From positions 12,953 through 76,952 of the IMG/VR virus record IMGVR_UViG_2767802086_000001: a DNA stretch of 64,000 bases; one strand, 5' to 3'. Positions 17,805 to 64,000 of the stretch are shown here, piece after piece. A program made the translations under genes and the position numbers. This stretch comes from a virus (lineage: Duplodnaviria > Caudoviricetes). Each line of letters opens with the position of its first letter. Position 1 is the stretch's first letter. The notes under the pieces were generated by a model. It had not been told where the DNA came from, made no database searches, and worked only from the letters and a program-made list of their open reading frames with translations.

Positions 17805-18155
17805 TCAGCCCTCGTCGATCTGCTTGCGGGGCGTGGTTGTCTTCTCCGGCTCCGAGTCCATGGCCGACGGCACGACCTCGACGCTGTAGCGCAGCGAACG
17901 CGAGACGCCGTCACCGGTGAGGTCGGTGCCGTCGAAGGACACGTCGCCACGCGGGTGGAGTCCGCGCTGGATCGCTTCCTGCAGAGTGGCAAGCTTGTTC
18001 GGCTCGTGCTCCGGTCCGTCCGTTTCCCCGAACTGGCCGCCCAGGACGACGAACTCCTTGGCGTGCCGGGTGCCGTCCGAGCCGTCCGCCGACCGCTTGG
18101 CGACCTGCGTCTCCGGCGTCTCCTTCTCGGTGGCCTTCTTCGCTGCCGCCATCAT
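17805..18155 (-). CDS. Hypothetical virion protein after capsid
   Basis: Translationally coupled to capsid gene. Confidence 0.65.
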   Translation of the reverse strand: MMAAAKKATEKETPETQVAKRSADGSDGTRHAKEFVVLGGQFGETDGPEHEPNKLATLQEAIQRGLHPRGDVSFDGTDLTGDGVSRSLRYSVEVVPSAMDSEPEKTTTPRKQIDEG

Positions 18156-19072
18156 CAGATCCCGACGAGAACGGCGGCGGCCTTCGGGTGACCGAGGGCG
18201 AACGCGCGGCGGGCGCGCATCTTCAGGATCGACTCGTCCGTCAGCGCCGACAGGCCGTCACGGCCGTCGATGAAGATGGACTCCGGTCCCGACCGGCGGC
18301 CAAGGCGCAGGAAGTCGGCGTTGGCAACGACGAGGATCGGCTTGCCAGCCGGGGCGTCGGTCGCAGTCGCGGAGATCCGGCAGCCAAGCGACCAGCGCAC
18401 CGGCAGGTCGAACAGGGTGTCGGGGGTGCCACGGTCGCCCTGCTGGCCCTGGACGAAGATCGGCTGACCCTGCAGGTCCTTGACGGCGCGAAGCGTGGCA
18501 CGGAACGACGGGTGGGCGATGACGACCATGCGGGACAGGTCGAAGTAGTCGCCGCCCTCAGCCTTGCCGAGGACCGCGGACAGGTCGTCGTAGCTGGGGC
18601 CGGCCGAGCCAGCAACGGTGATGTTGTCGTTGGCTGTGTAGCCGAGACCCGCGTTGGTCTGGGTGAGCGTGTAGTACACCGACTCAAACGGGACGCCCGT
18701 ACCCACAGCCGCGGACACGGCGAGGGTGGCGTTGTCGAGGAGCTTGGCGTAGCTGGTCGCCCAGTCCTTCTGCTTGGTCGTGAGGATGTTCGCGAGCGAG
18801 TCGTCGATGTCCTCTTCGGCGATGCGGATCGCCTTGCCGAGCTTCTTCGCGATCAACGTGATGTCGTCGTTGGTGGAGGTGTCCTCGCTGTACGCGCCAC
18901 CCTTGTCGACCACGGAGACGCCGACACCGGCGGACCGCGGGATGGACTTGGTGTTGGAGCTCATGGGCTCCGGCGATGCGAGGGACTCGACTGCGGACAT
19001 CTGGTCGACGCGCTGGATGACCTCGGAGGAGTCCTCTTCCGGGATCCAAGCCTCATACGTGTTGCGTGTCAT
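18155..19072 (-). CDS. Major capsid protein (HK97 fold)
   Basis: WIPEE, ITLIAKKLG..IAEEDIDD, LRAVKDLQGQPIF, TLFDLPV; strong RBS. Confidence 0.92.
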   Translation of the reverse strand: MTRNTYEAWIPEEDSSEVIQRVDQMSAVESLASPEPMSSNTKSIPRSAGVGVSVVDKGGAYSEDTSTNDDITLIAKKLGKAIRIAEEDIDDSLANILTTKQKDWATSYAKLLDNATLAVSAAVGTGVPFESVYYTLTQTNAGLGYTANDNITVAGSAGPSYDDLSAVLGKAEGGDYFDLSRMVVIAHPSFRATLRAVKDLQGQPIFVQGQQGDRGTPDTLFDLPVRWSLGCRISATATDAPAGKPILVVANADFLRLGRRSGPESIFIDGRDGLSALTDESILKMRARRAFALGHPKAAAVLVGI

Positions 19073-22595: not shown

Positions 22596-22626
22596 CAGCA
22601 TAACGCCACACCTTTGAATCAAAGGT
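22596..22626 (-). promoter_or_regulatory. Putative late promoter box upstream of portal
   Basis: GATTCAAAGGTG-N6-TATGCTG within palindrome ACCTTTGAATCAAAGGT. Confidence 0.5.
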
Positions 22627-24166
22627 AGCTTGCGCTGCTGGCCTTAGAAATCTCCCTCGCCTTGTTCGGGATGAACCGTCGGATCGCGCTCCCCACGGCA
22701 TCGACCATGTCGTCGTGCGGCGCCTTCGGAAACGCGCACATCTGCTGCTCCAACTCGACCAGCCGACGAGCATGGATCACCCGGCCGCGCTGGTAGTGGT
22801 TCAACACCCCTTCGGCCCGAACGAACTTGGGCTCGGACTGATTGACGGTCTTCACCTTCACTGGCATGTGGTGGAACACGGACTGCCAGACGTCCTGACC
22901 TTGGTTGATCTCCAGGAGGATCAGCCCGATCTGCGGCCATTCGTCGAGCAACGCGAGCACACGCTCTCGCATGTGGACACCGGGCGGAACCTTGACAGCC
23001 AGGGCGGCGTGCACGGTGCAGCGTCGGGTCTGGGCCGACCACGACACGACCGCAAGGCCCGTGTAGTCGGATCCCTTCTTCGCGGTAACCGCCGGGTCGA
23101 TGCTGAGCATCATGTGCGTGATCGGGTCCGGGCCCTCCTCACCGGGATACCGGAAGTCCTCCGGGACCCACAAGTCGCCGTCCGCGCCCATCGGATCGTT
23201 CGACATGTTCTTCGCGAACGACCTGGTGTGCTCAATGCTCTTGAGGTACGCGAGCGGCCACTTGGCGGGCCAGACACTGCGCTCGGTCCCGTCGTCGCGC
23301 TGGACGATTGGCGGGGTGTAGTGGGCGCGGAACCCTTCCTCGCTGATCCACTCTGCGGTCTCGACGCCGCGGGCGTGCTTCGTTAGCTGGTGGACGATGC
23401 TGCCGGGCATGGTGACGGTCCCGGAGATGACGACCCGGGCGTAGACGTTGAGGGGCAGGATTGAGTCGATGAGGGTGGTGCGCCGCTTGCTGGCCTGGTC
23501 AGCCGAGTAGCTGGACTCATCGGGCTCGATGTCGTCGCACAGGATGAGGTCCGGGCGCTGCTCCCCCACCTTCATGCCGAGGTTGGAGCTGTCGATACCT
23601 CGGGCCGCGAACACGAACCCGGACTTGGCGACGTACATCGACTGAGTGTCGGCGACGTTCGCACCGGACGGGCGACGGGCCGGGGTGCACAGGTCCGGGA
23701 AGTCCTGGCGCAGGAGTTCGTTGGTGTCGATCTCCCGCTTGAACGACCCCAGATGCGTCTCCGCCTGGCCGGCTGAGGATGCGAAGGCTGCGGCAAACCG
23801 GACGTGACCGTGGGCGGCGGCCCACATCGGCAGGATGAGGAACCACCAGGTCGACTTCCCCATGTTGCGAGGGGCGATGTAGGCGTCACGCTCCTCGGAC
23901 GGTCCGCCGACCGGGCGCACCCATGGGCGTGCGGCCCGGCACCAGTCGAGGTGGGCATCCCCAAACGTGATCACTCCTTCGCTGTCCCGCAGATGATGCC
24001 GGACGTAGACCAGGGCGAACAGCAGCGGGTCGAGGCGCGTGAGGGTGCGTCGCCCTTCGGCGTTCCCGAGGAGCCGCGGGTCGAACTGGGCGAGGTAGGC
24101 GCCGAGGTCGAACCGCTCCGCGTCCAGGCCGTGCAGGTAGCTCCGGGTGAACGTCGCGGTCGTCAC
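22619..24166 (-). CDS. Terminase large subunit
   Basis: APRNMGKS Walker A, RPDLILCDDIE Walker B, SIDPA and HDDMVDA nuclease motifs. Confidence 0.93.
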   Translation of the reverse strand: MTTATFTRSYLHGLDAERFDLGAYLAQFDPRLLGNAEGRRTLTRLDPLLFALVYVRHHLRDSEGVITFGDAHLDWCRAARPWVRPVGGPSEERDAYIAPRNMGKSTWWFLILPMWAAAHGHVRFAAAFASSAGQAETHLGSFKREIDTNELLRQDFPDLCTPARRPSGANVADTQSMYVAKSGFVFAARGIDSSNLGMKVGEQRPDLILCDDIEPDESSYSADQASKRRTTLIDSILPLNVYARVVISGTVTMPGSIVHQLTKHARGVETAEWISEEGFRAHYTPPIVQRDDGTERSVWPAKWPLAYLKSIEHTRSFAKNMSNDPMGADGDLWVPEDFRYPGEEGPDPITHMMLSIDPAVTAKKGSDYTGLAVVSWSAQTRRCTVHAALAVKVPPGVHMRERVLALLDEWPQIGLILLEINQGQDVWQSVFHHMPVKVKTVNQSEPKFVRAEGVLNHYQRGRVIHARRLVELEQQMCAFPKAPHDDMVDAVGSAIRRFIPNKAREISKASSASYL

Positions 24167-26966: not shown

Positions 26967-27233
26967 ATGGCCACCGACTACGAACCCAGCCCAGACGCAG
27001 CCGCCGTCTTCGCGGAATACAGGGAGCACTACGAAGGCGAGCGCGACCTCAAGCCCAAGATGCGCGAGCACGCCGCCCTGGAACTCAAGGCCGGCGCCAC
27101 GGTCGGCCAGCTCGCAAAAGCCACCGGCCTCACCCCCGAGGTCTTCCGCCGCATGGCCCGCGACCTCGGCGTCGAACGTCGCCGCCCGCCAACTGTCGGC
27201 AAGCTCAAGCCCGACTCGGGGAGCAGCGCATGA
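26967..27233 (+). CDS. Small HTH regulator
   Basis: GATVGQLAKATGLTPEVFRRMAR; divergent from operator. Confidence 0.75.
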   Translation: MATDYEPSPDAAAVFAEYREHYEGERDLKPKMREHAALELKAGATVGQLAKATGLTPEVFRRMARDLGVERRRPPTVGKLKPDSGSSA

Positions 27234-27610
27234 CCGACGACCTGGTGCAGTTCCTCCGCGACCGCCTCGACGAAGACGAGCTGACTGCAAAGGCTGCCGA
27301 TCCCGGCCTGGGCAACCTCCTCAGCCAGGTTGAGTACCTCGACGATGAGGTACAGGCAGATGAACGCCACATCGCCCGCCATGACCCGGCCCGCGTCCTG
27401 CGCGAGGTCGACGCCAAGCGGGGGATGATCGAGATCCACACGGTCGTCGGCGGCTTCGAGGACGAGGACATGACCGATCTCGGGCTGGGATGCAGCGAGT
27501 GCGGTTACTCGGCCGAGTACAGCGACCAAGGCGGCTGGTGCGACACGGTCAGACTGCTCGCCGTGCCCTACGCCGACCACGCGGACTATCAGCAGGAGTG
27601 GACGCCATGA
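27230..27610 (+). CDS. DUF6221-family protein
   Basis: FLRDRLDEDE, HIARHDPARVLREVDAKR, LLAVPYADHADYQQEW. Confidence 0.8.
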   Translation: MTDDLVQFLRDRLDEDELTAKAADPGLGNLLSQVEYLDDEVQADERHIARHDPARVLREVDAKRGMIEIHTVVGGFEDEDMTDLGLGCSECGYSAEYSDQGGWCDTVRLLAVPYADHADYQQEWTP

Positions 27611-28120: not shown

Positions 28121-28630
28121 TCACTGCTTGTTGTTGGTCTTGGCCCATACGCCGCTGGTCTTGCTTTGGACGTTCCGCTGGTCGACGGGCCCGTTGTAGA
28201 CGTTCGTGGTGACTCCGGAACGGGCACGGCTGATCGCTGCGCCAATCGCGGTGGCGAGCATCGCCGCGCCAGCGAACGGCAGGGTGACCATCAGGACGCC
28301 GTTCAGCGTGACCGAGGCGAGGCCCTGCAGGACCAGCCATGCGCCGCAGCCGATGCCGGTGACGCCAGTGCCGACGCCGATGGAGGCGACCGCGATTCCG
28401 GCTGCCCAGGCGGGCACGATCCGCTTGTCGTCCTGCTTCACGGGCGGGGTGTCGCCGATGCGCGGTCCGTCCTCCCACGATGGCAGGTCGGGGTTGTTGT
28501 AGGAGGTCGGCCGTTGTGCGCCGATCTGACTGATGGCGGTCATCATCTGGTTGGCGCGCTCGTTGATTACGGCGTCTCGGTGGGCCTGCCCGGCAGCGGG
28601 GGCGGCGGGCGGCTCGGGCAGGACGGTCAT
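28121..28630 (-). CDS. Spd-like two-TM membrane protein
   Basis: Gly-rich TM hairpin, C-terminal NVYNGPVDQ..SKTSGVWAKT; downstream of traB. Confidence 0.65.
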   Translation of the reverse strand: MTVLPEPPAAPAAGQAHRDAVINERANQMMTAISQIGAQRPTSYNNPDLPSWEDGPRIGDTPPVKQDDKRIVPAWAAGIAVASIGVGTGVTGIGCGAWLVLQGLASVTLNGVLMVTLPFAGAAMLATAIGAAISRARSGVTTNVYNGPVDQRNVQSKTSGVWAKTNNKQ

Positions 28631-28644
28631 GGCGGTGGGTTCTC

Positions 28645-28911
28645 CTATCGGTCGGTGTGATCAGCGGATGGGGCTTTGATCTGCTCGTTGAGCTCGGCAA
28701 CCTCTGTGATCTTCTGGAGGATCGGGCCGAGGTCGAGGGTGAGCGTCATGCGCGCGGGGGTGGCCTTGCGCAGGTCGATGCGGAGTTCCCTGCCGCCGGG
28801 GTCAAGCATGGCGAGGTGGGCATCGAGGAGCTTCTCGGCGGCCTCCAGCAGGGCGTAGATCTCCTGAGCGTTAGTGGCGGTGAACTCGTACTTGGGCGGG
28901 ATGGCGGTCAC
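28645..28911 (-). CDS. Hypothetical protein in transfer operon
   Basis: AGGAG RBS; follows traB. Confidence 0.65.
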   Translation of the reverse strand: MTAIPPKYEFTATNAQEIYALLEAAEKLLDAHLAMLDPGGRELRIDLRKATPARMTLTLDLGPILQKITEVAELNEQIKAPSADHTDR

Positions 28912-28926
28912 GGCGGTCTCCTGGAT

Positions 28927-30927
28927 CTAGGCGGCTTCGGCGAGTTCGGCGGAGTCGACAGGGATGTCGGCGTGGTTGGGGTGCGCCCAGATGCCGCGTT
29001 CTGTGTCCATGGCGCGGCCCTCCCGCTTGAGGCGGGTGAGCGCGCTCTTCACGGCGCCGAGGGTCAGGCGGGTCTCTTGGGCGATGGTGTTGCGACCGAC
29101 GGGCCGTCCGCGCTGCAGGAGGAAGGTGTAGACGGTGTCGTCGGTGCCAGCCGGCGCTTCGGCCTCGATGGCGGCAGTGGCGGCGGCGATCGGGTCTGCG
29201 CTGCTGGCGACCGCGGTCGTGGCGGGGATGGCGTCGTCGGGCAGGCTGACGGTCTCCCCGCGGAGGCGTGCGGCAAGTCGGTCGAGGCGCTCCGTGTAGG
29301 CCTTGCTGGTGCAGGCGGCCGCGGAGGCTTCGATGGTCGGGGTGGTGCCGGTGGTGGCCCAGTGGGCGGGGTCGCGGTCGAAGTGGGCACGGAACATCGC
29401 CTGGCGATTGTCGGGGCCCTTGATGTAGCCGAGTCCGGCCGTGCTGGTCTTGTCGGGCCAGTACATGGGCAGTGCAGATGGGTTGACGTCCCAGCCGGGC
29501 AGGCCGATGGAGTCGGTGAGCGTGCTAGCGGTACGGAACATGACGGTGTTGCCGGACTGCAGCTGCTCGCGGATGTCCGTGGACTCGGGTCCGGAGCCGT
29601 AGTAGTTGGACTTGGGGCCCTGGAAGACGAGGCGCAACTTGATGCCGCATTTGCGGGCCATGAGCACGATCTCGAAGACGAGGTCGACGGCGCCTTGCAG
29701 CTTAAGGACTCGGTGGGCTTCGTCGATGGTGACGGAGATCAGCGGGTCAGGGTCGCCGACGACGAAGTGGTCCCGGCCGCGGAGCTTGCGCCCCTTGTGG
29801 TCGGTGAACTCGAGCAGTGAGTAGCGGGCGGACCGCTCGTACATGATCTTGCGGACCTCGTAGAGCATGGCGAGGCCGCCCTGGGCTGTGTCCTCGTACC
29901 AGTCGACGGACTCCCGCCAACGGGGCAGGGACTGGCCGCCCTGCGGGTCGCACACCCAGGAGACGATCCCGTTGTGGCGCTCCGTGCCGAGGAGCATGTC
30001 GAGGAAGCGGCTCTTGCCGCCGTCTGTTGCGCCGTACACGACGGAGTGCACCGGGCCGGACGGCTTCCAGAACGCGTAGTGCGCGGGCTCCCCGTCGTAG
30101 AAGATGCCGACTTGGGCCTGGCCGGTGGTCATGTCGAGGATCTGCGGGCCCGGGTGATCGGTGCCCTTCTGCAGCGGGTTGCGGTTGAAGACGGCGATGA
30201 TCGCGCGGCGGGCGGACATCCCCACCGCCTTCTCGATCTGGATCATCTCGTCGGGGATGTCGAGGTCCCCCGCGATGTCGTTCATGGCGGACACTGCGCG
30301 GCGCCAGTTGCCCTTCTTCAGGACGATCACACCGGTCCAGCCGTAGTCGGTGGTGATGACGTTGACGAGCGTCGAGCCAGGCAGGGAGCCGTCGGAGCAG
30401 GCGACCTTGTCCTGCCAGGCCTTCATCTGCTCGGTGAGGTCGAGGACGGGCGCCGCAGTGCGCCGGCCGCGCCGCCACCAGTAGATGCCGTGACCAAGGC
30501 CCCAGGCGACGAGGAGCGCCGGGAAGGGGCTGTCGCCGATCTGCACGCCGCCGGTGGCGGCCATGGCGGTGACGAGGCCTCCTCCGCTGGTGGCGGCGGA
30601 CACGGCGCCAATGAAGTCGTTGCGGGCCGGGAGCCTCTTACGGAGACGCTTCTTGCCGACACGGCCTTCCCAGCGGCCCCAAGCGGTGGTGACGACTGCG
30701 CTCGTGACGGTTGCGGCGACAGCGGTCTTCCAGCCGTCCGGAGCCGTAGCCAGGACGGTGCCACTGAGGGCGAGGGCGCTGGTGGCGTAGACGGGGGCCA
30801 TGCCGCGGCGTGTGCGGTAGGCGAGGCGCATCGCGCGACGGGCCGGCTTCGTGGTCCGCTTCTTCTTCGGGCCAGCCGCGACGGGGGCTGCCGTGACGGT
30901 CTTCTCGGCGGTGATGGTCTGCGGCAT
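28927..30927 (-). CDS. traB: TraB-type FtsK/SpoIIIE DNA translocase
   Basis: N-terminal TM helices, GATDGGKS Walker A, VTIDEAH Walker B, ARKCGIKLRLVFQ, C-terminal winged helix. Confidence 0.85.
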   Translation of the reverse strand: MPQTITAEKTVTAAPVAAGPKKKRTTKPARRAMRLAYRTRRGMAPVYATSALALSGTVLATAPDGWKTAVAATVTSAVVTTAWGRWEGRVGKKRLRKRLPARNDFIGAVSAATSGGGLVTAMAATGGVQIGDSPFPALLVAWGLGHGIYWWRRGRRTAAPVLDLTEQMKAWQDKVACSDGSLPGSTLVNVITTDYGWTGVIVLKKGNWRRAVSAMNDIAGDLDIPDEMIQIEKAVGMSARRAIIAVFNRNPLQKGTDHPGPQILDMTTGQAQVGIFYDGEPAHYAFWKPSGPVHSVVYGATDGGKSRFLDMLLGTERHNGIVSWVCDPQGGQSLPRWRESVDWYEDTAQGGLAMLYEVRKIMYERSARYSLLEFTDHKGRKLRGRDHFVVGDPDPLISVTIDEAHRVLKLQGAVDLVFEIVLMARKCGIKLRLVFQGPKSNYYGSGPESTDIREQLQSGNTVMFRTASTLTDSIGLPGWDVNPSALPMYWPDKTSTAGLGYIKGPDNRQAMFRAHFDRDPAHWATTGTTPTIEASAAACTSKAYTERLDRLAARLRGETVSLPDDAIPATTAVASSADPIAAATAAIEAEAPAGTDDTVYTFLLQRGRPVGRNTIAQETRLTLGAVKSALTRLKREGRAMDTERGIWAHPNHADIPVDSAELAEAA

Positions 30928-30996
30928 GGCGGCTGTCTCTCCTGTGAGTGCGAGGGGCGGGGCGGCCCCGGCAGGTAGCCGGGGCCGCGGGGGCGG

Positions 30997-31902
30997 TCAG
31001 GCGTCGGCGGTGTACGCCTGCTTGGAGGCCATCCGTCCGCCCTGGGCGGCGACGGCCTCCTGGATGTTGGAGTGGCGGTCGTGGATGTTCTTGGAGGACT
31101 GGGCAGCGAGGGCGGCGGCGTCGAGCGCGGCCTTCTGGTAGGCGAGGGCGGCGGCCTGGGCGGCGATCGCCAGGTCGCGGAGGGCGGACAGTTCGTCGAG
31201 CGAGCCGCCGTCGTCACCGAACTCCAGCGCGGTGGCCTGCTCGATCGCGGCCTCAATGGCGGCGAGCTCGTCCACGGTGCGCTGGGCGAGTGAGCTGACT
31301 TCCTCGGCGCTGACGTTCTTCTCGGAGGCGTAGCGGGCGACGAACGCCTTGAGCGTGTCGACGCCGGTGATCTCCTGGAGCTGGGCGATGGCCATGGTTC
31401 CTCCTGTGGTGGATGCGGTGGTGGGGTCGATCTCGGGGTCGTCGTTCTTGATCAGGACGAAGGCGCGGGACTCGGGGCCGGTCGGCTTCGGGTCGGCCGC
31501 CGGCTTTGTGGCGGTGGGAGCTTCAGCCGGCTTCGGGATGGTCGTGATGGGGGTCTCGGTCTTGGCGGGGTCGGTCTTGGCGACGGGTGCGCCGTCCGGG
31601 CCGATGTCCTCGCCGATCGCCAGCTCGGGCTCCGGCTCGTAGCGGCCGAACTTGGTGGCGGCCCGCTTCTTCGCCTTGGGCCACTCGCGCTTCCAGCCGC
31701 GCATGAAGCCCCGCCAGAACGTTCCGGTGGCGGTCGCTCCTGTCGCCGTCCATGCCGCCAACTTGGCGCCGGTGCGGCGACCGTTCTTCTTGGCGGATTT
31801 GGCGATGCGCTTCTTGTGGTCCTTGGAGACGTCGGCCATGCCGTTCTCGATGCCGCGAGCGCAGGCGTAGGCGATGGCCAGCAGGATGATGAGTCCGAGC
31901 AT
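30997..31902 (-). CDS. Membrane-anchored coiled-coil protein of transfer operon
   Basis: N-terminal TM, Pro-rich linker, helical C-terminus; start corrected to ATG 31902. Confidence 0.7.
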   Translation of the reverse strand: MLGLIILLAIAYACARGIENGMADVSKDHKKRIAKSAKKNGRRTGAKLAAWTATGATATGTFWRGFMRGWKREWPKAKKRAATKFGRYEPEPELAIGEDIGPDGAPVAKTDPAKTETPITTIPKPAEAPTATKPAADPKPTGPESRAFVLIKNDDPEIDPTTASTTGGTMAIAQLQEITGVDTLKAFVARYASEKNVSAEEVSSLAQRTVDELAAIEAAIEQATALEFGDDGGSLDELSALRDLAIAAQAAALAYQKAALDAAALAAQSSKNIHDRHSNIQEAVAAQGGRMASKQAYTADA

Positions 31903-31904
31903 GG

Positions 31905-32372
31905 TCAGCCCCCCATCAGCCACATGACGAGGGATCCGACCTGCGTGGCGATGAAGCCGAGCGCCTTGGACGCCCCTTCGCCAAGTACGCCGGGGATCAT
32001 GACGGTGAGCGTGGGCGTGAACGCCGCGAGCAGTAGGGTGCGAGCCTTGACGCCGTTCACGAAGTCGCTGATCAGCCAGATCAGGGCGGCGAGGGCCAGC
32101 GCGAACGTGATCCCGAAGCCGGTCCACTCGCCTGCCAGCCCGTCAACGAACCCGTCGACGGCGGTTGTGGCCTGGTTGATGAGCTGGCCGACGGGGGTGG
32201 AGACGAGGCCGATGGATGCGGTCAGGACGAGCAGGACTTGAATCTGCGGGCTCTTGATCTTCGCGGTGAAGCGGTTGATCCATGGGAGCCGGTCGGCGAC
32301 GTAGAGCACGCCGGCTGTTCCTAGGCAGGTTCCGCCTGTTGCGGCGGAGATCCCTGCGTCAATCATGGGCAT
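31905..32372 (-). CDS. Multi-TM membrane protein of transfer operon
   Basis: 4-5 hydrophobic segments. Confidence 0.75.
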   Translation of the reverse strand: MPMIDAGISAATGGTCLGTAGVLYVADRLPWINRFTAKIKSPQIQVLLVLTASIGLVSTPVGQLINQATTAVDGFVDGLAGEWTGFGITFALALAALIWLISDFVNGVKARTLLLAAFTPTLTVMIPGVLGEGASKALGFIATQVGSLVMWLMGG

Positions 32373-32503
32373 TTTCGGGTTCCCCCTTGTGGTTACGGTG
32401 GGTTAGTGGTTTCCTCGCGTGCGCGCGGGCGCGAGCAGGCGCGTTGAGATCTCGATGGCTCGCCCGGAACGGCTTGAGCCGTTCCTTGAGCCATTACGTT
32501 CGG

Positions 32504-32740
32504 TTAGGTGTCGGCGATGGACTGGCGAAGCTGGTCGAGGAGCTGGACCGCCTTGCTGGCGGCGTCCGCCCGTTCGGCTTCGGGGAGGCGAGCGATCACC
32601 GCCCGGAGTTGATCGACCGCCACGGGAAGGGTCGTCAGAGGGCCTTGCTGCTCGGCGGACTTGCGGCGATCACCCATGTGCTGGGCGGAGCGCGCCTGCC
32701 GGGCAGCGAGTCGGGGGCGGCGGGTTCGAGTGATGGTCAT
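32504..32740 (-). CDS. Small hypothetical protein
   Basis: GAGGA RBS; helical. Confidence 0.65.
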   Translation of the reverse strand: MTITRTRRPRLAARQARSAQHMGDRRKSAEQQGPLTTLPVAVDQLRAVIARLPEAERADAASKAVQLLDQLRQSIADT

Positions 32741-32747
32741 CGCGTCC

Positions 32748-33833
32748 TCAGTCGTTCAGGGCGGGGAGGTCGATGCGGTCGAGGATTTCGGTGCGGATGT
32801 TCTTCGCCGACGAGTCGGAGGGCCGGCCGTGGCCTGCCTGGCTGATCGCGTCGGCGAACTCGCTCGCGGTCGGGTTGCGCTTCAGCCGCTTGAACTCGGC
32901 GTGGAAGATCGGCTCGGCGAGCGCCACCCACTCGGCCATCGACCGTCGCGGGGCCTTCTCGGCGGCCGGCTTCTGGCGCAACTTGGCGGGGGCCTTCTTG
33001 GCGACAGCTGCCGTCTTCTTGGCGGGTGCTTCTGTCGCCTTCTTGGCGGCGCCAGAAGTGGCGTTCTGGCGCTCGTTCTGGCGGTCGCTTTTGGCGGGGG
33101 CGTTGTCGCCAACTGGCGGCACGACCGGAGCCAACTTGGCGGGCGCTTCCTGGCGGGGCGCTGTCGCCAGAACGGGTACCGCCGCGGTCGCCTGCTGGCG
33201 GTCACTGCGGCGCTGGCTCGGCTCGCGCTTGGCCTTCGCCGGGGCGGTGATGGTGTGCATGCGCCAGAGGATCAGCGAGGCGACCGAGGCGACGATGGCG
33301 ATCAGCCACCACTTCGGGTCGGTCTTGCCGTCGTGGCCCGGGTCGACGCCGAAGAGTCCGGCGTCGGCCAGGTGGTAAATGACGTTGGCGGCGATGGTGA
33401 GGCCGATCGCCTGCATGACGTCGCGGTGCCGACGGAAGGCCTGGATGACGTACACGTCGATCACGAGCGGCAGGAGCCAGGCCACGCCCCCGTCGAAGCC
33501 GACCATCCTGGCGAGCTCGAACTCTCCGCTCGCGGTGAGACCGACAGCACCGGCGATGACGGCCCGGGCGGACCAGGTGTCGAGGTTGTCGTCGCGCTTC
33601 TGGCGCTTGGCGGTCTCGGCATTGGCCGCTTCGCGAATCTGGTCGGCCTCGCCATTGGCGGAAGCGAGGACCCGGGTGCGCAACCCCTGCGCCTCTGCAG
33701 CGGCGGTCTCGCGGATCTCCCTCGCGTCGGCCTTGGCCGCGGCAAGGAGCGTGTCGGCCTCAGCCTGTGCTGCGGCGGCGTGCTCGTCAGGGCGGGGCAG
33801 CGGCAGGGGGTGGAAGTCGTCGGGCGAGAACAC
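32748..33833 (-). CDS. SpdA/SpdB-like (DUF2637-type) membrane protein with C-terminal HTH
   Basis: Coiled coil, ELARMVG..AWLLPLVID, 4 TM, low-complexity linker, PTASEFADAI..SAKNIR. Confidence 0.7.
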   Translation of the reverse strand: MFSPDDFHPLPLPRPDEHAAAAQAEADTLLAAAKADAREIRETAAAEAQGLRTRVLASANGEADQIREAANAETAKRQKRDDNLDTWSARAVIAGAVGLTASGEFELARMVGFDGGVAWLLPLVIDVYVIQAFRRHRDVMQAIGLTIAANVIYHLADAGLFGVDPGHDGKTDPKWWLIAIVASVASLILWRMHTITAPAKAKREPSQRRSDRQQATAAVPVLATAPRQEAPAKLAPVVPPVGDNAPAKSDRQNERQNATSGAAKKATEAPAKKTAAVAKKAPAKLRQKPAAEKAPRRSMAEWVALAEPIFHAEFKRLKRNPTASEFADAISQAGHGRPSDSSAKNIRTEILDRIDLPALND

Positions 33834-33877
33834 GGGCCCTCCTCTCGGGTGGGATGGTGGCGACAGGGCGGGCGGGG

Positions 33878-34159
33878 TCAGGCGGCCTGGTCGAAGCGCC
33901 CGGACAGGGCGTCGAGCTCGTTGAGCTCGTCGATGAGGCGCGGGCCGAAGCGCTGGGCGGCGTCGTGCTCCTTGGCCAGGCCTCGCAGCCAGTGCCGGGT
34001 CCCGGAGTCACCGCGAGCGGCGATGTACCGGGTGACGATCTCGCTGGGCTCGATCCCGTCCGCCTCCTCTCGTGCGAGGCCGATGTCGGCGACGAGGATC
34101 CGCTTGCGGAGGTCCCGGATGTCGGCGGAGAACGTGGCGAAGTCAGCGTTGAACAGCAT
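33878..34159 (-). CDS. Hypothetical protein
   Basis: ORF with typical codon bias in transfer operon. Confidence 0.6.
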   Translation of the reverse strand: MLFNADFATFSADIRDLRKRILVADIGLAREEADGIEPSEIVTRYIAARGDSGTRHWLRGLAKEHDAAQRFGPRLIDELNELDALSGRFDQAA

Positions 34160-34251
34160 TGGGGTGCCCTTCGATCGGTACGTGGATGAGGTGGAGAGCC
34201 GCGGTCGCGAGGGAGCTGGGGGCTCGCCGCGCGACCGCGGCGGTATGGGGG

Positions 34252-34584
34252 CTAGCGGCGGCGAGCGGCCTCTTCGCCGATGTCATGGACGTCGAGCCCC
34301 AACGTCGAGGCCTCGTCCTGCAGTCGGTGCGACTCGGCTACGGCCGCCTGCCAGAACCGGTCGCCGGTGTGGTCCTGCCCCTTGGCGTTGAGGTCGGCGG
34401 CGATGCGGAGGCACACGTTCATCTGGTCGGCCGCGGCGCCGAGCGCGCTGGCGGTACGGGCACGGTCGGCAATCTGGCTCTGCAGCCAGGCGGGCGTTCC
34501 GGGCATGACGGTCTCCTTGATGCGGTGGGCGGCGACGTGGATGGGGTGGAGTACCGCGCCCGTGCCGGGGCTGGGGGTGGTCAC
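34252..34584 (-). CDS. Hypothetical protein
   Basis: ORF with typical codon bias. Confidence 0.6.
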   Translation of the reverse strand: MTTPSPGTGAVLHPIHVAAHRIKETVMPGTPAWLQSQIADRARTASALGAAADQMNVCLRIAADLNAKGQDHTGDRFWQAAVAESHRLQDEASTLGLDVHDIGEEAARRR

Positions 34585-34609
34585 CGGCGCAGGCGCGGCG
34601 ATCTGTGGG

Positions 34610-34774
34610 TTAGCGGCGGGTGCGCTGCTGGCGGGCGAACGTGGCGCGGGATTCCGCGGCGGACTCGTAGTCGCGGCGGCAAGCGGCGATCGTGGCCGGC
34701 TCTTCGACGATGCTGCTCGGCTTGGGGGGCTTGGTCGCCTTGTCGGCGACGCCCCGGTCGCGGAGCACGGTCAC
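34610..34774 (-). CDS. Small hypothetical protein (54 aa)
   Basis: Not in track; GTGA overlap; SIVEEPATIAACRRDYE. Confidence 0.5.
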   Translation of the reverse strand: MTVLRDRGVADKATKPPKPSSIVEEPATIAACRRDYESAAESRATFARQQRTRR

Positions 34775-34995
34775 CGCTCCGAGAGCTGAGCGAGCTCGGC
34801 CTGCGCCTGCGCCAGCTGGTCGAAATCGGCCGGCGTCATGGTGCGGGCGTCCATCGCGGACAGACGGGCGATCTCGTCCCGGCAGATCCTGGTGCGGACC
34901 GAAACCCGGTCGGTGGTGCGGACGTGCGACGCGGCAGCGTGGGCGTCGGTGTCCGTGGACGTCATCGGGAAGGCGGGAGCGATCGAGGGGGTCAT
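34771..34995 (-). CDS. Small hypothetical protein
   Basis: ATGA overlap with upstream gene. Confidence 0.55.
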   Translation of the reverse strand: MTPSIAPAFPMTSTDTDAHAAASHVRTTDRVSVRTRICRDEIARLSAMDARTMTPADFDQLAQAQAELAQLSER

Positions 34996-35312
34996 GACGT
35001 CACCGCCCGACGGACGCTGCGAACGATCTGGGTGGCGGGCCAGAGGATGCGTCCGATGCGGGCGCGGATTCGCTGGGGGCGCTCCAGCCTGTGGGCGGCG
35101 GACCGGTGTGCGGCGGCGAGGCGGTAGTAGCTGGCCTGTACGGCCTTCGCCTCTGCCAGCTCGTCGGCCGACATCAAGCCAGCCGAGCGCCGGACCGAGA
35201 TGCTGCGAGCGGCACTCTCGGCACGCCGCATCGCGGCGTAGTGCCAGTTCGGGGTGCGGCCCGGGGCGGTGATGGTCGCGGCGGGGGCGCCGGTAAGCTT
35301 GCGTGCAGCCAT
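34992..35312 (-). CDS. Basic hypothetical protein, first gene of transfer operon
   Basis: GAGGA RBS; start corrected to ATG 35312. Confidence 0.55.
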   Translation of the reverse strand: MAARKLTGAPAATITAPGRTPNWHYAAMRRAESAARSISVRRSAGLMSADELAEAKAVQASYYRLAAAHRSAAHRLERPQRIRARIGRILWPATQIVRSVRRAVTS

Positions 35313-35438
35313 CAGGGGTCCTCTCAAAGATCCTGGTGGTGAGGGCCGGCCCGCGATGTAGGAGTCGCGGTGTCCGGCCCGTTTGCAGTTGTGGGGCGCT
35401 GCTCTCGGACGAGTCCGGTAGGAGTGAGCAGCACCGTC

Positions 35439-35543
35439 TCTCAAATTGGAACTTGAGAAGCGGCTACGAGGTAGACAGTAGGCGCCTCGGCACGCGCAGT
35501 CAAGACGTGTCTTGAGAGAGTGTCGGAACACCTCTACTCTCAA
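35439..35543. promoter_or_regulatory. Operator pair TCAA-N8-TTGA in divergent promoter
   Basis: TCTCAAattggaacTTGAGA (35439-35458), TCAAgacgtgtcTTGA (35500-35515), half site 35537-35543. Confidence 0.6.
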
Positions 35544-35546
35544 CCC

Positions 35547-35789
35547 ATGACCGATTCCCTGGACGCCGCCTTCGCCCCGCTGCACGCCCGCCTCAGAGCC
35601 ATCAGCGACCTCAGCGAGCGCTACAAGGCCATCCGGGAAGCCGAGGAGACGTTCGAGCACCTCAAGCGAACCCATCTCCAAGAGGTCGCCCAAGGTCTCC
35701 GCGCCGAAGGGAAGAAGTGGAAGGAGGTCGCCGCGATCATGGGTGGCGTCTCCTACCAAAGGGCCTTCCAGTACGGCCGAGGCGAGTGA
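35547..35789 (+). CDS. Small HTH regulator (candidate Kor/TraR analogue)
   Basis: LRAEGKKWKEVAAIMGGVSYQRAFQY; divergent from transfer operon. Confidence 0.75.
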   Translation: MTDSLDAAFAPLHARLRAISDLSERYKAIREAEETFEHLKRTHLQEVAQGLRAEGKKWKEVAAIMGGVSYQRAFQYGRGE

Positions 35790-35951
35790 GCGGGACGTCT
35801 TCATGCCTTCGAGTCAACGCCCAGGCGCGTTACCGAACCATGAGCGCCGGCTGCACCTAGCAGCACAGTTCCGCGCCGACCGGAACGCTTCCGGCACGGA
35901 ATCGGTACGCACCACGAAGTACGCCACCAACGACACAGCTGGGGCCGGATA

Positions 35952-36587
35952 GTGGACGTCATTGATGCATGGGACGGGCGGAAAGCGTGCGCGCTACAGC
36001 AGGCGTTCCGCTTGACGCAGGAAGGGTTCGCCGAGCACCTCGGCGTATCTGTGCGGACGGTTGGGAAGTGGCATGCCGAGCCCGACGCAGAGCCTCGCCC
36101 GGACATGCAGCAGATCCTCGATATCGCCTACGGAAGGGCCGACCCGACTGTGCAGAGACGTTTCCGTCTTCTGATCCGCCCGCCGGAGACTCCCAGCTTG
36201 GGGCAGGCTCTTCGGGTGGCCATCACGGTGGTGGTCCGTGGCGATGACGTGCTCCTGGTTTGCCGTCGCGGCGACGCTTCCCTGTCCTGGCAGTTCCCGG
36301 CCGGGATGGTGAAGCCGGGCGGTTCGCCGGAGACCGTCGCCGTACAGGAGACCCTGGCCGAGACGGGCGTGCACTGCGCGATCCGGCAGCATCTCGGTGG
36401 CCGGCTGCACCCCGTCACTGGCGTCGTTGCCGAGTACTACCTTGCCGAGCACCTGATGGGCGAGGCCGCGAACCGGGACCCGCAGGAAAACGTCGACGTG
36501 ACGTGGGTGCCTCGCGCATCTCTGACCCGTTTCATACCCGCAGACCGCATCTACGAGCCGATCTTGAGCGCCTTGGAGGCCGCGTGA
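35952..36587 (+). CDS. XRE-HTH fused to degenerate Nudix domain
   Basis: LTQEGFAEHLGVSVRTVGKW; WQFPAGMVKPGGSPETVAVQETLAETGV. Confidence 0.85.
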   Translation: MDVIDAWDGRKACALQQAFRLTQEGFAEHLGVSVRTVGKWHAEPDAEPRPDMQQILDIAYGRADPTVQRRFRLLIRPPETPSLGQALRVAITVVVRGDDVLLVCRRGDASLSWQFPAGMVKPGGSPETVAVQETLAETGVHCAIRQHLGGRLHPVTGVVAEYYLAEHLMGEAANRDPQENVDVTWVPRASLTRFIPADRIYEPILSALEAA

Positions 36588-37003
36588 CCCAGCAGACCGA
36601 GACCGAGCAGCAGGGCATCTCGACCGCGATCATCGTCGACAGCGACAGCGGGCGGGTCCTGATGATCCGGCGGCGCGAGCGGGAGGGCAAGTTGCTGTGG
36701 GCGTTCCCTGGCGGTGGGATCGAGGCCGGGGAGACACCGGAGCAGGCCGCGGTGCGGGAGACGTCCGAAGAGGTCGGCCTCGAAGTGAAGTCCGTCCGAA
36801 CCCTGGGCGATCGGGTACACCCGAACACGCACCGGCACATGACCTACGTGGCGTGCGAGCCGATCTCCGGCGAGGCGATCGTGGGGGATGCCGAGGAGAT
36901 CGCCGAGGTCGCGTGGATCACGCATAGGCAGATCTCGGAGTACGTGCCCTACGGCCTGTACAAGCCGGTCCAGGAGTACCTCGACAGCGTGCTGCCGCAC
37001 TGA
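36584..37003 (+). CDS. Nudix hydrolase (pSAM2 Pif-like context)
   Basis: Canonical Nudix box GGGIEAGETPEQAAVRETSEEVGL; GTGA overlap. Confidence 0.88.
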   Translation: MTQQTETEQQGISTAIIVDSDSGRVLMIRRREREGKLLWAFPGGGIEAGETPEQAAVRETSEEVGLEVKSVRTLGDRVHPNTHRHMTYVACEPISGEAIVGDAEEIAEVAWITHRQISEYVPYGLYKPVQEYLDSVLPH

Positions 37004-42055: not shown

Positions 42056-43294
42056 TCACGGGGTGGGGGCGGCGGTCGGGTACTCGCGGACGCGGATCTC
42101 GGCCGGCCAGTCCGCCGGGGCGCCGCCTTTCTTGTCCGACGCCCCGTTCTCTCGCGCCCAGACGGAGCCGAGCTGCTTCACGAACGTCGCCACTCCAGCG
42201 CTGCGCGCGTCCCTGGCCAGGGCCTCAGCCCACTTCGGCTCGAACGGTCGCGCGCCCGGGCCTGATTCGCCTCCGACGATCACCCAGTCGATGGGCTGGC
42301 TGCGCTTGCGGTCCTTTGTGCCGAACGAGGTGTAGGCGAACGACCTGTTCGGGTCGTCATCGAGGACGAGCCGACCGATGTTGTTCCACGCGTGGACGTA
42401 CCGGCCGACGATCCGGCGGGGGTTTCGGCCGAAGCCGTCGTCCATGAGGAGGGTGGCGCCGAATGCCGGTGCGCCCTGCTGGTGCATGTCCTGCATCCAT
42501 TCGCGGGGGCTGCGTCCCTGGTCGGCGCCCCAGAATCCTTCGATGGCCTCGCGGACCTCGGCAGGCACCCACTCGGGCCACGACCACTCAGCCCACGTCC
42601 GAGGCGCCTCGTCCACCGGCAGCGGCGAGATCGCCGGCATCCACGGGCTGAGATCGACCGGGCCGAGGAGCGGCTCACAGGACAGGAACCGGACCGCGGC
42701 CGGCGTCTTCAGCAGGGCGGGGATTCGGAGGTCGGCGTACTTCTGGTTCTCCACCGAAGTGCCGATCCACACGTTGGGCAGCGGCCAGCCGGAGCGGTGG
42801 TAGATGCCGTGCTCCAGGCCGGGTACGTAGGTGGGGCTGTGTGAGGTGGCGGCCCATTCCATGGAGGAGCGGAAGTGCGTCCCGGGGACGCAGCCGCGGC
42901 CGCAGGTACACAGATCGGTGAGGATGCGGGCCGCGCGCTCGGGGCGCTTGGTGAGGATCTGGTAGGTGTGCTGCGGGGTGGCGGCCATGACGGCGAACAC
43001 CTGTGCCAGGAACTCGCGGGGGACGCGGGCGTGGAACAGGTCGGACATGGAGTTGACGAAGATCTTGCGGGGCTTCTTCCAGCGGAGCGGTTCGGTGAGG
43101 GCGTCGGCGTGTGTGGCGATGCCGAAGCCGGGGCCAGAGGTCCGCGGGTCGCCGTCGGTCTGGTACTTCGCCGAGCCCATGCCCTTGAGGCGCTTGGCCA
43201 TGGTCAGCGCGTAGCAGTTGTCGCAGCCGGGGCTAACGCGGTTGCAGCCGGTCGTCGGATTCCAGGTCTGCTCGGTCCATTCGATGTTGCTCAT
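42056..43294 (-). CDS. Phage Gp37/Gp68 (DUF5131) radical-SAM-like protein
   Basis: [57 protein letters not shown]. Confidence 0.9.
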
Positions 43295-43548
43295 CAATCG
43301 CTCCAGGTGAGTTGGTGCTGCATGGGCGGGAGGAAGATCTCTATCTGGCCGGGTATCGGGTCGGGGGTGGCCGTGGGCGACGCTTGGCTCTTCCGGGGCG
43401 CTGTACGGCCGCGTGCGGCTCTCGCACAGTGCGGGCCGAGTCCCCTGCGGCGGGATGCCTGGGAGCGCAGCAGGCGCCCACAGGACCGGCACCGCAGGCC
43501 AGTTGAGGTCCGGCCGGTGGAGTCGGCATCCAACGTGCGGGCGGTCAC
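43294..43548 (-). CDS. DUF6011-like Zn-finger protein
   Basis: [18 protein letters not shown]. Confidence 0.7.
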
Positions 43549-44921
43549 GTCTGGGCCATGTCGACGAACCGGCTGTAGTGGCCCTGGAATGCGACGGTGA
43601 TGGTGGCGGTGGGCCCGTTGCGGTGCTTGCCGACGATCAGGTCTGCTTCGCCGGCCCGCGCGGATTCCTTGTCGTAAGCGTCTTCGCGGTGCAGGAGGAT
43701 CACCATGTCGGCGTCCTGCTCCAGGGATCCCGATTCGCGAAGGTCGGACACCTGCGGCTTCTTGTCGTTGCGCTGCTCGGGTCCGCGGTTGAGCTGGCAG
43801 AGGACGATGACGGGGACTTCCAGCTCTTTAGCCATGAGCTTGACGTTGCGGCTGATGTCGGAGACTTCCTGCTGCCGGTTCTCTTGGCGGCGGGAGGTGC
43901 CGCAGCCGAGCAGTTGGAGGTAGTCGATGACGACGAGGTCGAGGCCGTTGCGCTGCTTCAACTTTCTGCAGCGGGCCTTGATTTGCATGATCGTCTGGTT
44001 CGGGGTGGCGTCGATCGTCAGAGGGGCTGCCGTGACGTCGGGCGACCTGCGGGCGAATCGCTCCCAGTCGGAGTCGGTCATGTTGCCGCCACGGATGTGG
44101 TGGAGGCCGATGCGGGCTTCGGCGGACATGACGCGGTGCTGGACTTCGCGCCGGGACATTTCGAGGCTGAACATTGCGGCAGGGCGGCCGTGCTGGATGG
44201 AGCAGGCTCGGAGGATGTCGACGGCGAGGGTGGACTTTCCCATGGCGGGCCGCGCCGCAATGATGATCATCTGGCCGGGGTGGAGGCCGTGGGTCAGCGC
44301 GTCCAGGTCGGCAAACCCGGTGGGCACCCCCATAGCCTTGCCGTTCTTCTCCAGGTCGACGAGCTCGTCGACCATGTCGTCCATGTCGTCGCCGATGGGC
44401 GCGGAGTCGGGGTCGTCGCGGACCTGGACGGCTTTGTTTAGCTCGGCGGCTGCGGCGTCGGCGGATTCGTTGGCGTCTCCCCCGGCGTAGCCGAGCTGAG
44501 CGATGGCTGTGCCGGCGCGGACGAGGCCGCGGAGGATGCTCTTCTGGCGGACGATGTCGGCGTAGTAGCCAGCGTTTGCCGCGGTGGGGGTGCCCTGGAC
44601 GAGAGTGAACGCGGCGTTGATGCCGCCGGCTCGGTCGAGTTCGCCGCGTTCCCGGAGCCGGTTGGTGACGGTGATCGGGTCGACAGGGTCGCCCTTGCTG
44701 AACAGGTCGGTGATCGCGCTGAAGACGAGTTCGTGGGCGGGCTTGTAGAAGTCGGCGCCCTCGACGATCTCGACGACTTCGGTAATGGCGTCGCGGTGGA
44801 GCATCATGCCGCCGAGCACGGACGCTTCTGCATCCATGTCCTGGGGAGGCATCCGGTCGAGGCGGTCGGGCTCTACGGGGGCGGCGTCCTGCCAGAGGTC
44901 GGTGTCGATCTCGGTGGTCAT
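43545..44921 (-). CDS. dnaB: Replicative DNA helicase
   Basis: [52 protein letters not shown]. Confidence 0.96.
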
Positions 44922-62710: not shown

Positions 62711-64000
62711 ATGGGCCGGATCAATCAGCATGTCCACGTTGAGTGGCGTGGCGGAACCTGCCGCGTGAAGTGGTGGAACAACGAATACCTTGAGAACGGC
62801 CGCAGACGGTACGAGTCCAAGGGTGGATTCACCGACGAAGAAGCGGCCTACGAGTACGGCCATGACAAGCGGTCCGAGATCCGGCACGGCACGCACGTCA
62901 AGAACAGAGACGGCGCGACCCTGATGTCGGACTGGCTGGACGACTGGCTCGCCGCCATGGACCACGGTCACCTGACGGAGCGCGGCTACCGGTCGGCGAT
63001 CGAGAACCATATTCGCCCGTACTTCAAGAAGCAGAACGCATCCGTCGGTGACATCGACGTTCTCGCTTACCGGGCGTTCAAGAAGCACATCAACGCGAAG
63101 ATGAAGAAGCCGAGCTCGGCCAGCAACATCATGATGGTGCTCGGCATGGTGCTCGACGACGCGGTGCCCCGCCTGATCAAGACGTCACCAGTCGAACGGA
63201 CTAGGCGTCGGGGAAAGTTCGTCAAGAAGCCCAAGGAGCGCAAGAAGGACATGACGCCAGAAGCCGTTGAGCAGCTGGCGCGCAACGCGAGGATCTACTT
63301 CGGCGAATCGGGCTACGCCTTCATCTGGACCATGGCCCTGACCGGCATGCGGCCGGCCGAGCTGTTCGGCTTGACGCGTGAGTACTGCTACCCGAACTGG
63401 CCCATCACCGACCCACGGTCGGACCCGGACGAGGCGGAGCGGTACGAGGAGGACGTCGAGCGGTACGGCAAGACTGACGGCCTGATGCCGGCAATTCGAG
63501 TAGAACGCCAAGTTCAGTACGCAGACAGCGTGCTCCAGTTCTTCCCGCCGAAGTACGAGTCGCGCCGGACGCTGGTGGTGCCGCCGTTCCTGGCGGAGCT
63601 GCTGGAGAAGCTCCTCATGTCACACGACAGCGAGTGGGTGTTCCCGGCGATCCAGGGCGGGAGCCTGGGGGTGGTGAACTTCGACTACGTGTACTGGCGG
63701 CCGATCGCTGACGGCGCCGATGCGCGCAAGGGGCCGCGAGTCCGCCGGCCTCGGGCGGAGATGCCGACCGTGCCGTCGTTCAAGGGCAAGCGCCTGTACC
63801 TGCTGCGGCATGGCCATAAGGCCTGGCTGGACGAGGACGCCCATAGCACGTTCGCGGTGGAGTCCCGGATGGGCCACGAGGTGCCGGGTGTTGGGGGGAT
63901 CTATTCGAGCGTGACGGTGCCGATGGAGCGTGCCATCATGAAGACGATGCAGGAGCGTTGGGAAGGTCTGCAGGACAGGTTGAGAGGGTCGGAAAGCTAG
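62711..64000 (+). CDS. int: Tyrosine integrase
   Basis: GFTDEEAA arm domain, ALTGMRPAEL, PPK, YLLRH, RMGH, GIY. Confidence 0.93.
   Translation: MGRINQHVHVEWRGGTCRVKWWNNEYLENGRRRYESKGGFTDEEAAYEYGHDKRSEIRHGTHVKNRDGATLMSDWLDDWLAAMDHGHLTERGYRSAIENHIRPYFKKQNASVGDIDVLAYRAFKKHINAKMKKPSSASNIMMVLGMVLDDAVPRLIKTSPVERTRRRGKFVKKPKERKKDMTPEAVEQLARNARIYFGESGYAFIWTMALTGMRPAELFGLTREYCYPNWPITDPRSDPDEAERYEEDVERYGKTDGLMPAIRVERQVQYADSVLQFFPPKYESRRTLVVPPFLAELLEKLLMSHDSEWVFPAIQGGSLGVVNFDYVYWRPIADGADARKGPRVRRPRAEMPTVPSFKGKRLYLLRHGHKAWLDEDAHSTFAVESRMGHEVPGVGGIYSSVTVPMERAIMKTMQERWEGLQDRLRGSES

Follow-up and report, generated by a model that had tools for sequence, protein, structure and literature searches.

A plasmid-type DNA transfer operon as a candidate fixed component of integrating Streptomyces prophages

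The usual view is that phages spread as particles, whereas plasmids do so by conjugation. The elements closest to the one described here combine features of both. The plasmid-phage pZL12 (GQ919031) is a free plasmid that has been studied experimentally (PMC3583192, PMC4487206) and is treated in PMC7157519 as a singleton, while pSLE1 (NZ_LN831788.1) is described as homologous and syntenic to pZL12 and as carrying two integrase genes (PMC4487206). For conjugative plasmids of Streptomyces, the TraB protein of pSVH1 is reported to have a three-part build of membrane anchor, ATPase and winged helix (PMC4447253, PMC3583192), and SpdB2 is described with an N-terminal coiled coil, four transmembrane helices and a C-terminal domain (PMC4447253). 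The temperate phages phiC31 and VWB also carry SpdB2 homologues, which the authors suggest aid in the spread of phage DNA (PMC4447253). In integrative and conjugative elements of actinomycetes (AICEs), Nudix genes typically lie beside XRE-type regulators, and Pif of pSAM2 is a Nudix immunity factor (PMC2440964). Here we analyse a stretch of 64,000 nucleotides (the window), bases 12953-76952 of the 76,952-base IMG/VR record IMGVR_UViG_2767802086_000001, which is classified as proviral and is, by the CheckV estimate, 92% complete. At 28121-34159, on the minus strand, the window contains an operon of at least seven genes, centred on a protein of 666 aa. On balance, the evidence tips towards reading this region as a plasmid-type operon for double-stranded DNA (dsDNA) transfer and spreading that has become fixed, under selection, in a mosaic family of siphovirus-type Streptomyces prophages that integrate.

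The central gene of the operon (28927..30927, minus strand) is predicted by motifs, hydropathy, structure modelling, Foldseek and profile comparison to encode a TraB-like dsDNA translocase. Its Walker A motif reads GATDGGKS and its Walker B motif VTIDEAH, and the residues K305 (Walker A) and E403 (Walker B) are invariant across 33 family sequences, down to 27% identity. An AlphaFold model computed from an alignment of 33 family members (mean predicted local distance difference test score, pLDDT, of 84.9) contains four N-terminal helices at residues 44-157, an alpha/beta domain at 186-515 and a C-terminal winged helix at 595-648, the last composed of helices 595-606, 612-619 and 623-635 and strands 640-643 and 646-648 (pLDDT 76-92). 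Hydropathy likewise shows four weak hydrophobic segments, lying within residues 42-144. In Foldseek the model matched FtsK motor domains and TcpA, the coupling protein of pCW3, best (all with E ~1e-12), with EccC/EssC and HerA next. FtsK/SpoIIIE and TcpA are thus the best structural matches to the ATPase domain, yet they share only 15-18% identity with it, and the context in the window is that of a phage rather than a cell-division or pCW3-type locus. As modelled, the central protein has the TraB/FtsK build of membrane anchor, ring-translocase ATPase fold and C-terminal winged helix, which is what an initial annotation of the window had proposed.

The same annotation had called for a comparison of TraB with FtsK and EccC. 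For this we scored a family profile against plasmid proteins and against host proteins from three Streptomyces genomes carrying the prophage family. The profile matched a linear-plasmid protein over its full length with 584.6 bits and the Tra protein of pSLE1 over nearly its full length with 186.6 bits (E 1.4e-57), whereas host FtsK was matched in the Walker region only (40.9 bits, E 1.7e-13), five chromosomal PF01580 proteins of 462-584 aa were matched in part (17-34 bits) and two EccC-sized proteins were not matched at all. Because pSLE1 Tra aligns nearly end to end and host FtsK only in part, these scores favour the plasmid-Tra side over FtsK/EccC, in line with the original proposal. Judged by sequence, the central protein is a homologue of the Tra proteins of Streptomyces plasmids and of pSLE1, the latter a full-length homologue with 27.5% identity. 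A word-indexed protein search in which 8000 candidates were scored returned 108 relatives, of which 70 are 73-94% identical; the names given to these are Streptomyces 'hypothetical protein' or, twice, 'biotin operon repressor'. PF01580 is present in six of the 108, all of them distant, and the translocase family includes about 70 protein clusters whose identity is at least 73%.

Homologues of the translocase were found in 164 actinomycete plasmid records, 146 of them from Streptomyces, the best showing 38% identity over 91% of the length. The weaker plasmid matches are covered by annotations such as 'transfer protein', 'traB' and 'type IV secretory system conjugative DNA transfer family protein'. 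In one plasmid the likeness extends to gene order: the linear plasmid NZ_CP106800.1 presents a divergent GntR gene, a WhiB gene, a DUF2637 membrane protein gene, a homologue of the 78-aa protein of the window (42%), a homologue of its 155-aa protein (36%), two hypothetical genes, the Tra homologue (38%) and then small genes. This gene order equals that of the window, and three genes of the module have homologues in the same sequence. The phage collection contained three records (two large phages) that match the translocase, with 24% identity over the motor domain.

The two plasmid-phages provide a second line of comparison. Both pZL12 and pSLE1 are tailed-phage genomes in which a tra operon lies directly upstream of terS, terL and portal, as in the window. 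In pSLE1 a divergent GntR gene and a run of small genes precede the Tra gene, which is followed by terS, terL, portal and capsid, and pZL12 is arranged likewise around 71c, its FtsK-like gene. Moreover, window genes 28121-28630 and 36584-37003 show weak homology to pZL12.70c and to the Nudix gene pZL12.76c, respectively, and the window's record shares its endolysin, tape measure and second recombinase with pSLE1 at 41-67%. The initial annotation had named pZL12 as a partial precedent; the precedent holds and is closer than claimed, with both plasmid-phages carrying their tra operons in exactly this slot. Since pZL12.71c is not detectably related to the window's translocase, the slot is shared and the translocase lineage differs. 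The way of life differs as well: pZL12 and pSLE1 exist as free circular plasmids that encode ParA/ParB and a divergent GntR regulator, whereas the window's element is integrated and has neither (ParB_N and AAA_31 gave no match in the 76,952-base record), the place of the GntR gene being taken by a pair of genes encoding a helix-turn-helix (HTH)-Nudix and a Nudix protein. As a supported candidate, the element may be described as widespread and as the integrating equivalent of a pZL12-type plasmid-phage, its Tra protein being of a different lineage.

Other described systems resemble the locus in part. By described architecture, the TraB/Spd plasmids pSVH1, pIJ101 and pWTY27 share the translocase build, the small membrane proteins and the SpdB2 layout; unlike them, the window lacks TraR and an identified clt of 8-bp repeats, and its translocase falls below the Pfam FtsK_SpoIIIE threshold. 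AICEs such as pSAM2, SLP1 and pMEA300 are likewise integrated and have a Tra translocase and, in many cases, a Nudix gene next to an XRE-type HTH gene (PMC2440964). In contrast to AICEs, int, xis and rep are all absent from the module itself, and the integrase and replication genes belong to a tailed phage of ~60 kb with a full virion set. The label 'AICE-style', under which the region was first described, gives way to the more fitting 'plasmid and plasmid-phage style'. As in the window, phiC31 and VWB carry a spreading-type membrane protein on an integrating Streptomyces phage; they are cited for their SpdB2 homologues only and are not among the three phage records that match the translocase, whereas in the window a translocase and its conserved partners are present. 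In the accessible text of PMC3218068, PMC9513070, PMC11302927, PMC12282955, PMC4487206, PMC7157519, PMC3583192 and bioRxiv 10.1101/2025.09.05.674406 we found no description of an integrated prophage that carries a TraB-type operon, subscription journals and supplements lying outside this search.

The module has a defined place in the prophage. The window has a G+C content of ~68%, and gene calling based on G+C at third codon positions (GC3) puts nearly all of its genes on the minus strand, in agreement with the minus-strand operon first described. Along this strand the order is early region, transfer module, small genes and late region, with an integrase open reading frame (ORF) on the plus strand at the record end. 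The early region (61671-38772) encodes a DnaB helicase, a DUF5131 protein, a cytosine methylase and a sliding-clamp homologue; the helicase gene (43545..44921, minus strand; DnaB_C, E 4.9e-100) serves as the early, replication marker upstream of the module. The late region (24166-6415) starts with the large terminase gene (22619..24166, minus strand; phrog_38, E 3.7e-69), 4.8 kb downstream of the translocase gene, and continues with portal, a MuF-like protein, major capsid (18155-19072), tape measure and minor tail proteins, so that the head and tail genes, earlier judged to be intact, were all found.

To ask how constant this place is we compared 15 IMG/VR records and 11 species-representative Streptomyces genomes whose translocases are 73-94% identical to that of the window, two loci being identical between the sets. 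The contigs that carry the 11 genome loci range in length from 11 kb to 8.5 Mb, and 10 of the 11 exceed 100 kb. A conserved core of four genes, encoding the 78-aa, 155-aa and ~300-aa proteins and the translocase, is present at 24 of the 26 loci: 13 of the 15 IMG/VR loci, the other two being cut and starting at the translocase gene, and all 11 genome loci. TerL lies downstream on the same strand, 2.9-7.8 kb away, at 13 of 15 IMG/VR loci, and within 10 kb at 8 of 11 genome loci, where the misses are one 11-kb contig and two loci with only small genes in the 10 kb seen. With the window counted, 14 of 16 provirus loci use the same slot, and six relatives fetched whole have the same overall gene order as the window. 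The expectation that related prophages would keep the module at the same position is thus borne out.

The surrounding phage is far less constant. TerL belongs to phrog_9 in all six whole relatives as against phrog_38 in the window, so the slot has been kept while the packaging module was swapped; indeed, a phrog_38 terminase was detected in only 2 of the 15 relatives because the relatives use another terminase family. The portals and tape measures of the six relatives are 23-35% identical to those of the window or undetectable. The translocase, by comparison, is 74-94% identical across phages with terminases of different families. Its frame is open, with both Walker motifs, at 26 of 26 loci, and the ratio of nonsynonymous to synonymous substitution (dN/dS) between the window and five relatives is 0.13-0.28. 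On this comparative sequence evidence, the module is under purifying selection and has kept its place while head, tail and terminase modules were exchanged.

The companions of the translocase in the operon are four predicted membrane proteins and three small soluble proteins. The probable first gene (33878..34159, minus strand) encodes a 93-aa protein of no family, with a homologue in one relative only (locus L004; G000 is the window's own record, other G numbers denote related provirus records and L numbers their loci). It is followed by a 361-aa protein of SpdB2-like architecture (32748..33833, minus strand), with a coiled coil at residues 17-80 that resembles ATP synthase b in profile matches, about four hydrophobic helices (~89-197), a Lys/Ala/Pro-rich stretch and a C-terminal domain. 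Homologues of its transmembrane part occur in 65 plasmids, mostly unnamed, and in pMLP1, and in at least four of the 65 the homologue lies 4-6 kb from a Tra-like match on the same strand. The 78-aa soluble protein of the core (32504..32740, minus strand) has homologues at 13 of 15 IMG/VR and 11 of 11 genome loci, and its plasmid homologue at 42% identity is the gene at the same position of NZ_CP106800.1. The best-conserved partner of the translocase is the 155-aa protein (31905..32372, minus strand), which by hydropathy has about four transmembrane segments and is 72-90% identical at the same numbers of loci; its 36% homologue on NZ_CP106800.1 is a tra-operon gene, and the ESM Atlas returned unnamed clusters only. 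Next comes a protein of ~301 aa and no family (30997..31902, minus strand), in which one N-terminal transmembrane helix is followed by a linker rich in Pro, Thr and Ala and by a helical, Ala-rich C-terminus, again with homologues at 13 of 15 and 11 of 11 loci; the ATG at 31902 is taken as its likely start, the mechanical ORF extending to 32127. Downstream of the translocase gene are an 88-aa soluble protein of no family (28645..28911, minus strand), with homologues at 3 of 15 IMG/VR and 2 of 11 genome loci, and, as the last gene, a 169-aa membrane protein with 2-3 hydrophobic segments by hydropathy (28121..28630, minus strand; phrog_19266, function unknown, E 1.4e-11). The latter is present at 10 of 15 IMG/VR loci and is 26% identical (E 8e-4) to pZL12.70c, which lies just downstream of the pZL12 Tra gene.

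The region had been credited with four Spd-like membrane proteins. Four membrane proteins are indeed predicted, but none received a family name from Pfam, PHROG or NCBIfam, 28121-28630 alone matching an unnamed PHROG; 'Spd-like' is therefore a statement of architecture and position, and the SpdB2 layout of coiled coil, four transmembrane helices and C-terminal domain is seen in 32748-33833 only.

Divergent from the operon, on the plus strand, are two Nudix genes, which confirms the pair first described. The first (35952..36587) encodes a 211-aa protein with an N-terminal HTH-like segment and a Nudix domain with a degenerate Nudix box (NUDIX E 5.5e-15, residues 87-196), and is present at 7 of 15 IMG/VR and 3 of 11 genome loci. 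The HTH of this divergent gene was proposed from the sequence, where such a segment can be read, but neither Pfam nor a PDB sequence search named one, the PDB matches being to Nudix proteins only. The second gene encodes a 139-aa Nudix hydrolase with a canonical Nudix box (NUDIX E 2.7e-25) and is 28% identical to the Nudix gene pZL12.76c (E 6e-12); the start at 36260 given for it earlier is that of the mechanical ORF, and the gene lies at 36584..37003. The comparison with pSAM2 Pif extends to the Nudix box only, which is likewise found in this pair. Both proteins also match the PADLOC candidate-defence model PDC-S07, the first with E 6.6e-7 and the second with E 2.9e-19.

Between the operon and the Nudix pair, a repeat scan found two copies, 79% alike, of an element of ~80 nt (34180..34261 and 34535..34619), each with a 15-nt inverted repeat. 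This duplicated hairpin precedes two small genes at the operon head and is conserved only in the two closest relatives, G001 and G015. Operators had been proposed for the divergent gene; apart from the hairpin the scan gave only short repeats at chance level, which do not bear the proposal out. Two clusters were considered as candidates for clt and set aside. The densest cluster of 7-8-mers in the window, CTTGGCGG at 32982-33196, is in-frame low complexity: all five copies of CCGCCAAG share one reading frame and encode (P/A/T)AK, and hexamer copies in other frames encode a repeated DRQ peptide. It was rejected as a DNA-level site because of these in-frame codons and because the gene that contains it is present in only 2 of the 15 relatives. 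The other candidate, GC-rich 8-mers 100-300 bp upstream of the translocase start in all seven full genomes, was rejected because in the window's cluster (~31050-31260) all nine GCCGCC copies are codon-aligned Ala-Ala.

If the module acts as its relatives on plasmids suggest, then after excision or during replication the winged helix would bind repeats somewhere on the circular phage genome, and the ATPase ring, assisted by its membrane partners, would pump duplex DNA through membrane and wall. The route could be hyphal contacts, as in conjugation to another mycelium, septal cross-walls, as in intramycelial spreading, or both, and the outcome would be phage transmission without virions. The divergent Nudix pair would serve as a regulator or as an immunity factor, in the manner of pSAM2 Pif. 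More tentatively, and with rather less than even confidence, we propose that a widespread family of virion-forming, integrating Streptomyces prophages is dual-mode, spreading as virions and by its own TraB-like pumping into neighbouring mycelia and across cross-walls, and that the gap between replication genes and terS generally serves actinophages as a transfer-module slot, which different phages have filled with Tra proteins of unrelated lineages.

Several observations count against a transfer and spreading operon. DNA transfer by the module is something we infer from sequence. A look through sequencing runs listed no RNA data, and the 15 DNA runs listed had small shares (0.06-0.09). The curated models of Pfam, PHROG and NCBIfam give the 666-aa protein no name: it has no Pfam match even at E 10, none in PHROGs, an empty PDB sequence search and, in NCBIfam, a 12.5-bit match to TraD and nothing more, while PF01580 reaches 11.3 bits around the P-loop, below the Pfam FtsK_SpoIIIE threshold. 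In the phage collection, pZL12 aside, no record exceeds the 24% motor-domain match, and the functional precedent of pZL12 itself is one of analogy and not of orthology because pZL12.71c has no detectable similarity to the window's translocase family. Nor did the expected cis-acting and regulatory parts turn up: no clt of clustered short direct repeats was found in the repeat scans of the window, and no GntR-type repressor of the TraR/KorA kind is present in the module. Two components are not universal: the SpdB2-like 361-aa protein is present in 2 of 15 IMG/VR and none of 11 genome relatives, and the Nudix pair in 7 of 15 and 3 of 11. Finally, with their matches to PDC-S07, the two Nudix proteins might be anti-phage candidates instead of, or besides, conjugal-immunity factors.

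This last point leads to the explanation that competes best, namely that the module has a phage-specific role other than cell-to-cell transfer, which could be superinfection exclusion or defence by the membrane ATPase and the Nudix pair, or FtsK/SffA-like segregation of excised genomes into hyphal compartments or spores. We consider it unlikely, although parts of it have a basis in the data. The fold is common with FtsK, and HerA-type defence ATPases are among the structural matches. Defence would account for the PDC-S07 matches of the Nudix genes, but PADLOC gives the ATPase only a 16-bit P-loop match and the membrane proteins none. Segregation would suit an element that forms free circles: IMG/VR flags direct terminal repeats in G001, G002 and G014 (loci L004, L005 and L017), with an end overlap of 48 bp in G001, and these relatives may be free circular phage forms, though excision could equally have given rise to the repeats during assembly. 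As the record encodes neither ParA nor ParB, another segregation device would be useful, but host FtsK is only a distant and partial match to the translocase. Against both versions, the relatives closest among those annotated are transfer proteins of plasmids, with their genes arranged as in a tra operon.

A decayed AICE or plasmid fragment, inserted in the prophage as an inert passenger, is largely refuted and in our judgement highly improbable. All functionally named homologues are on plasmids and the accessory gene content of the module varies among relatives, as such a fragment would suggest, but the core has been retained, the slot kept, the frames left open and dN/dS held low across phages with different terminase families, and on these grounds an inert passenger is disfavoured. 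Nor is there any sign of an independent insertion. Pfam detects one tyrosine recombinase in the record, which lies outside the window, and no serine recombinase; neither kind occurs in the module. No RepSA, RepAM or Prim-Pol was found in the record, the blanks for RepSA and RepAM being weak because the control genomes gave no match to these models either. The longest direct repeat in the module flanks is 13 bp, a length reached by 87% of 162 random region pairs. The module's reported lack of an integrase, Rep gene and att repeats is accordingly upheld, with the same reservation for RepSA and RepAM. Hardly any credence is left for a translocase that serves the virion cycle, by DNA entry or exit or by feeding the packaging machine: its gene does come immediately upstream of those for packaging in all relatives examined, as it does in pZL12 and pSLE1, but TerS/TerL are all that tailed phages need to package DNA and the prophage has these genes, a membrane-anchored protein with partners in the membrane suggests envelope transport and not capsid filling, and the phage collection has no close homologue, only the 24% matches in two large phages.

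Several features of the prophage outside the module are worth recording. The ORF at the record end (62711..64000, plus strand) encodes the N-terminal 429 aa of a protein cut by the record end. A Pfam search of this cut ORF gave no match; it matches an ORF of G012 with E 4e-10, which in turn matches PF00589 with E 3.9e-22, and its relatives are located at the ends of related proviruses. On these two grounds, and by sequence, the ORF is the prophage tyrosine integrase minus its last few dozen residues, so that the integrase attributed to this prophage is accounted for by its N-terminal part. To the left of the window the record holds an amidase endolysin, a collagen-like tail fibre and a second tyrosine recombinase. 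The recombinase (G000:C1:6415-7449, ~5.5 kb left of the window start; PF00589, E 1.2e-27) is 88% identical to a copy in G003 and 45% identical to a pSLE1 recombinase, which there stands behind a DUF6221 gene; a window gene at 27230-27610 on the plus strand is 34% identical to this DUF6221 gene of pSLE1. The collagen-repeat tail-fibre gene is found at G000:C1:7885-10230 and at G001:30145-32154 (the G001 copy being phrog_14726). In G001 it sits in the gap between terS and the transfer module and in the window's record at the far end past the lysis genes; one gene thus occupies two different locations in close relatives. Genes that look glycosyltransferase-like from the sequence view alone (window 347-4781, plus strand, and G000:C1:11947-13148) form an antisense, plus-strand block in the gap between tail and lysis genes. 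In the early region, the DUF5131 protein (42056-43492, minus strand; 478 aa) has a match of 390 residues over 230 profile positions and therefore an insertion of ~160 residues, which could be, for example, an intein or an extra domain, and 56511-57521 (minus strand) encodes a homologue of the DNA polymerase III beta clamp.

A plasmid-type transfer operon fixed in integrating prophages would matter for how phages travel in mycelial bacteria. pZL12 is the one worked-out hybrid of phage and plasmid in Streptomyces, and here the same idea appears in ordinary integrated prophages, in 15 IMG/VR records and 11 species-representative Streptomyces genomes, two of them overlapping. If the dual-mode reading is true, such phages could reach hosts that do not have their receptor and lysogenise a whole mycelium without lysis. 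Should the module work, host range and prophage spread in mycelial bacteria would not be set by receptors alone, and prophages would join the conjugative elements that mobilise Streptomyces DNA.

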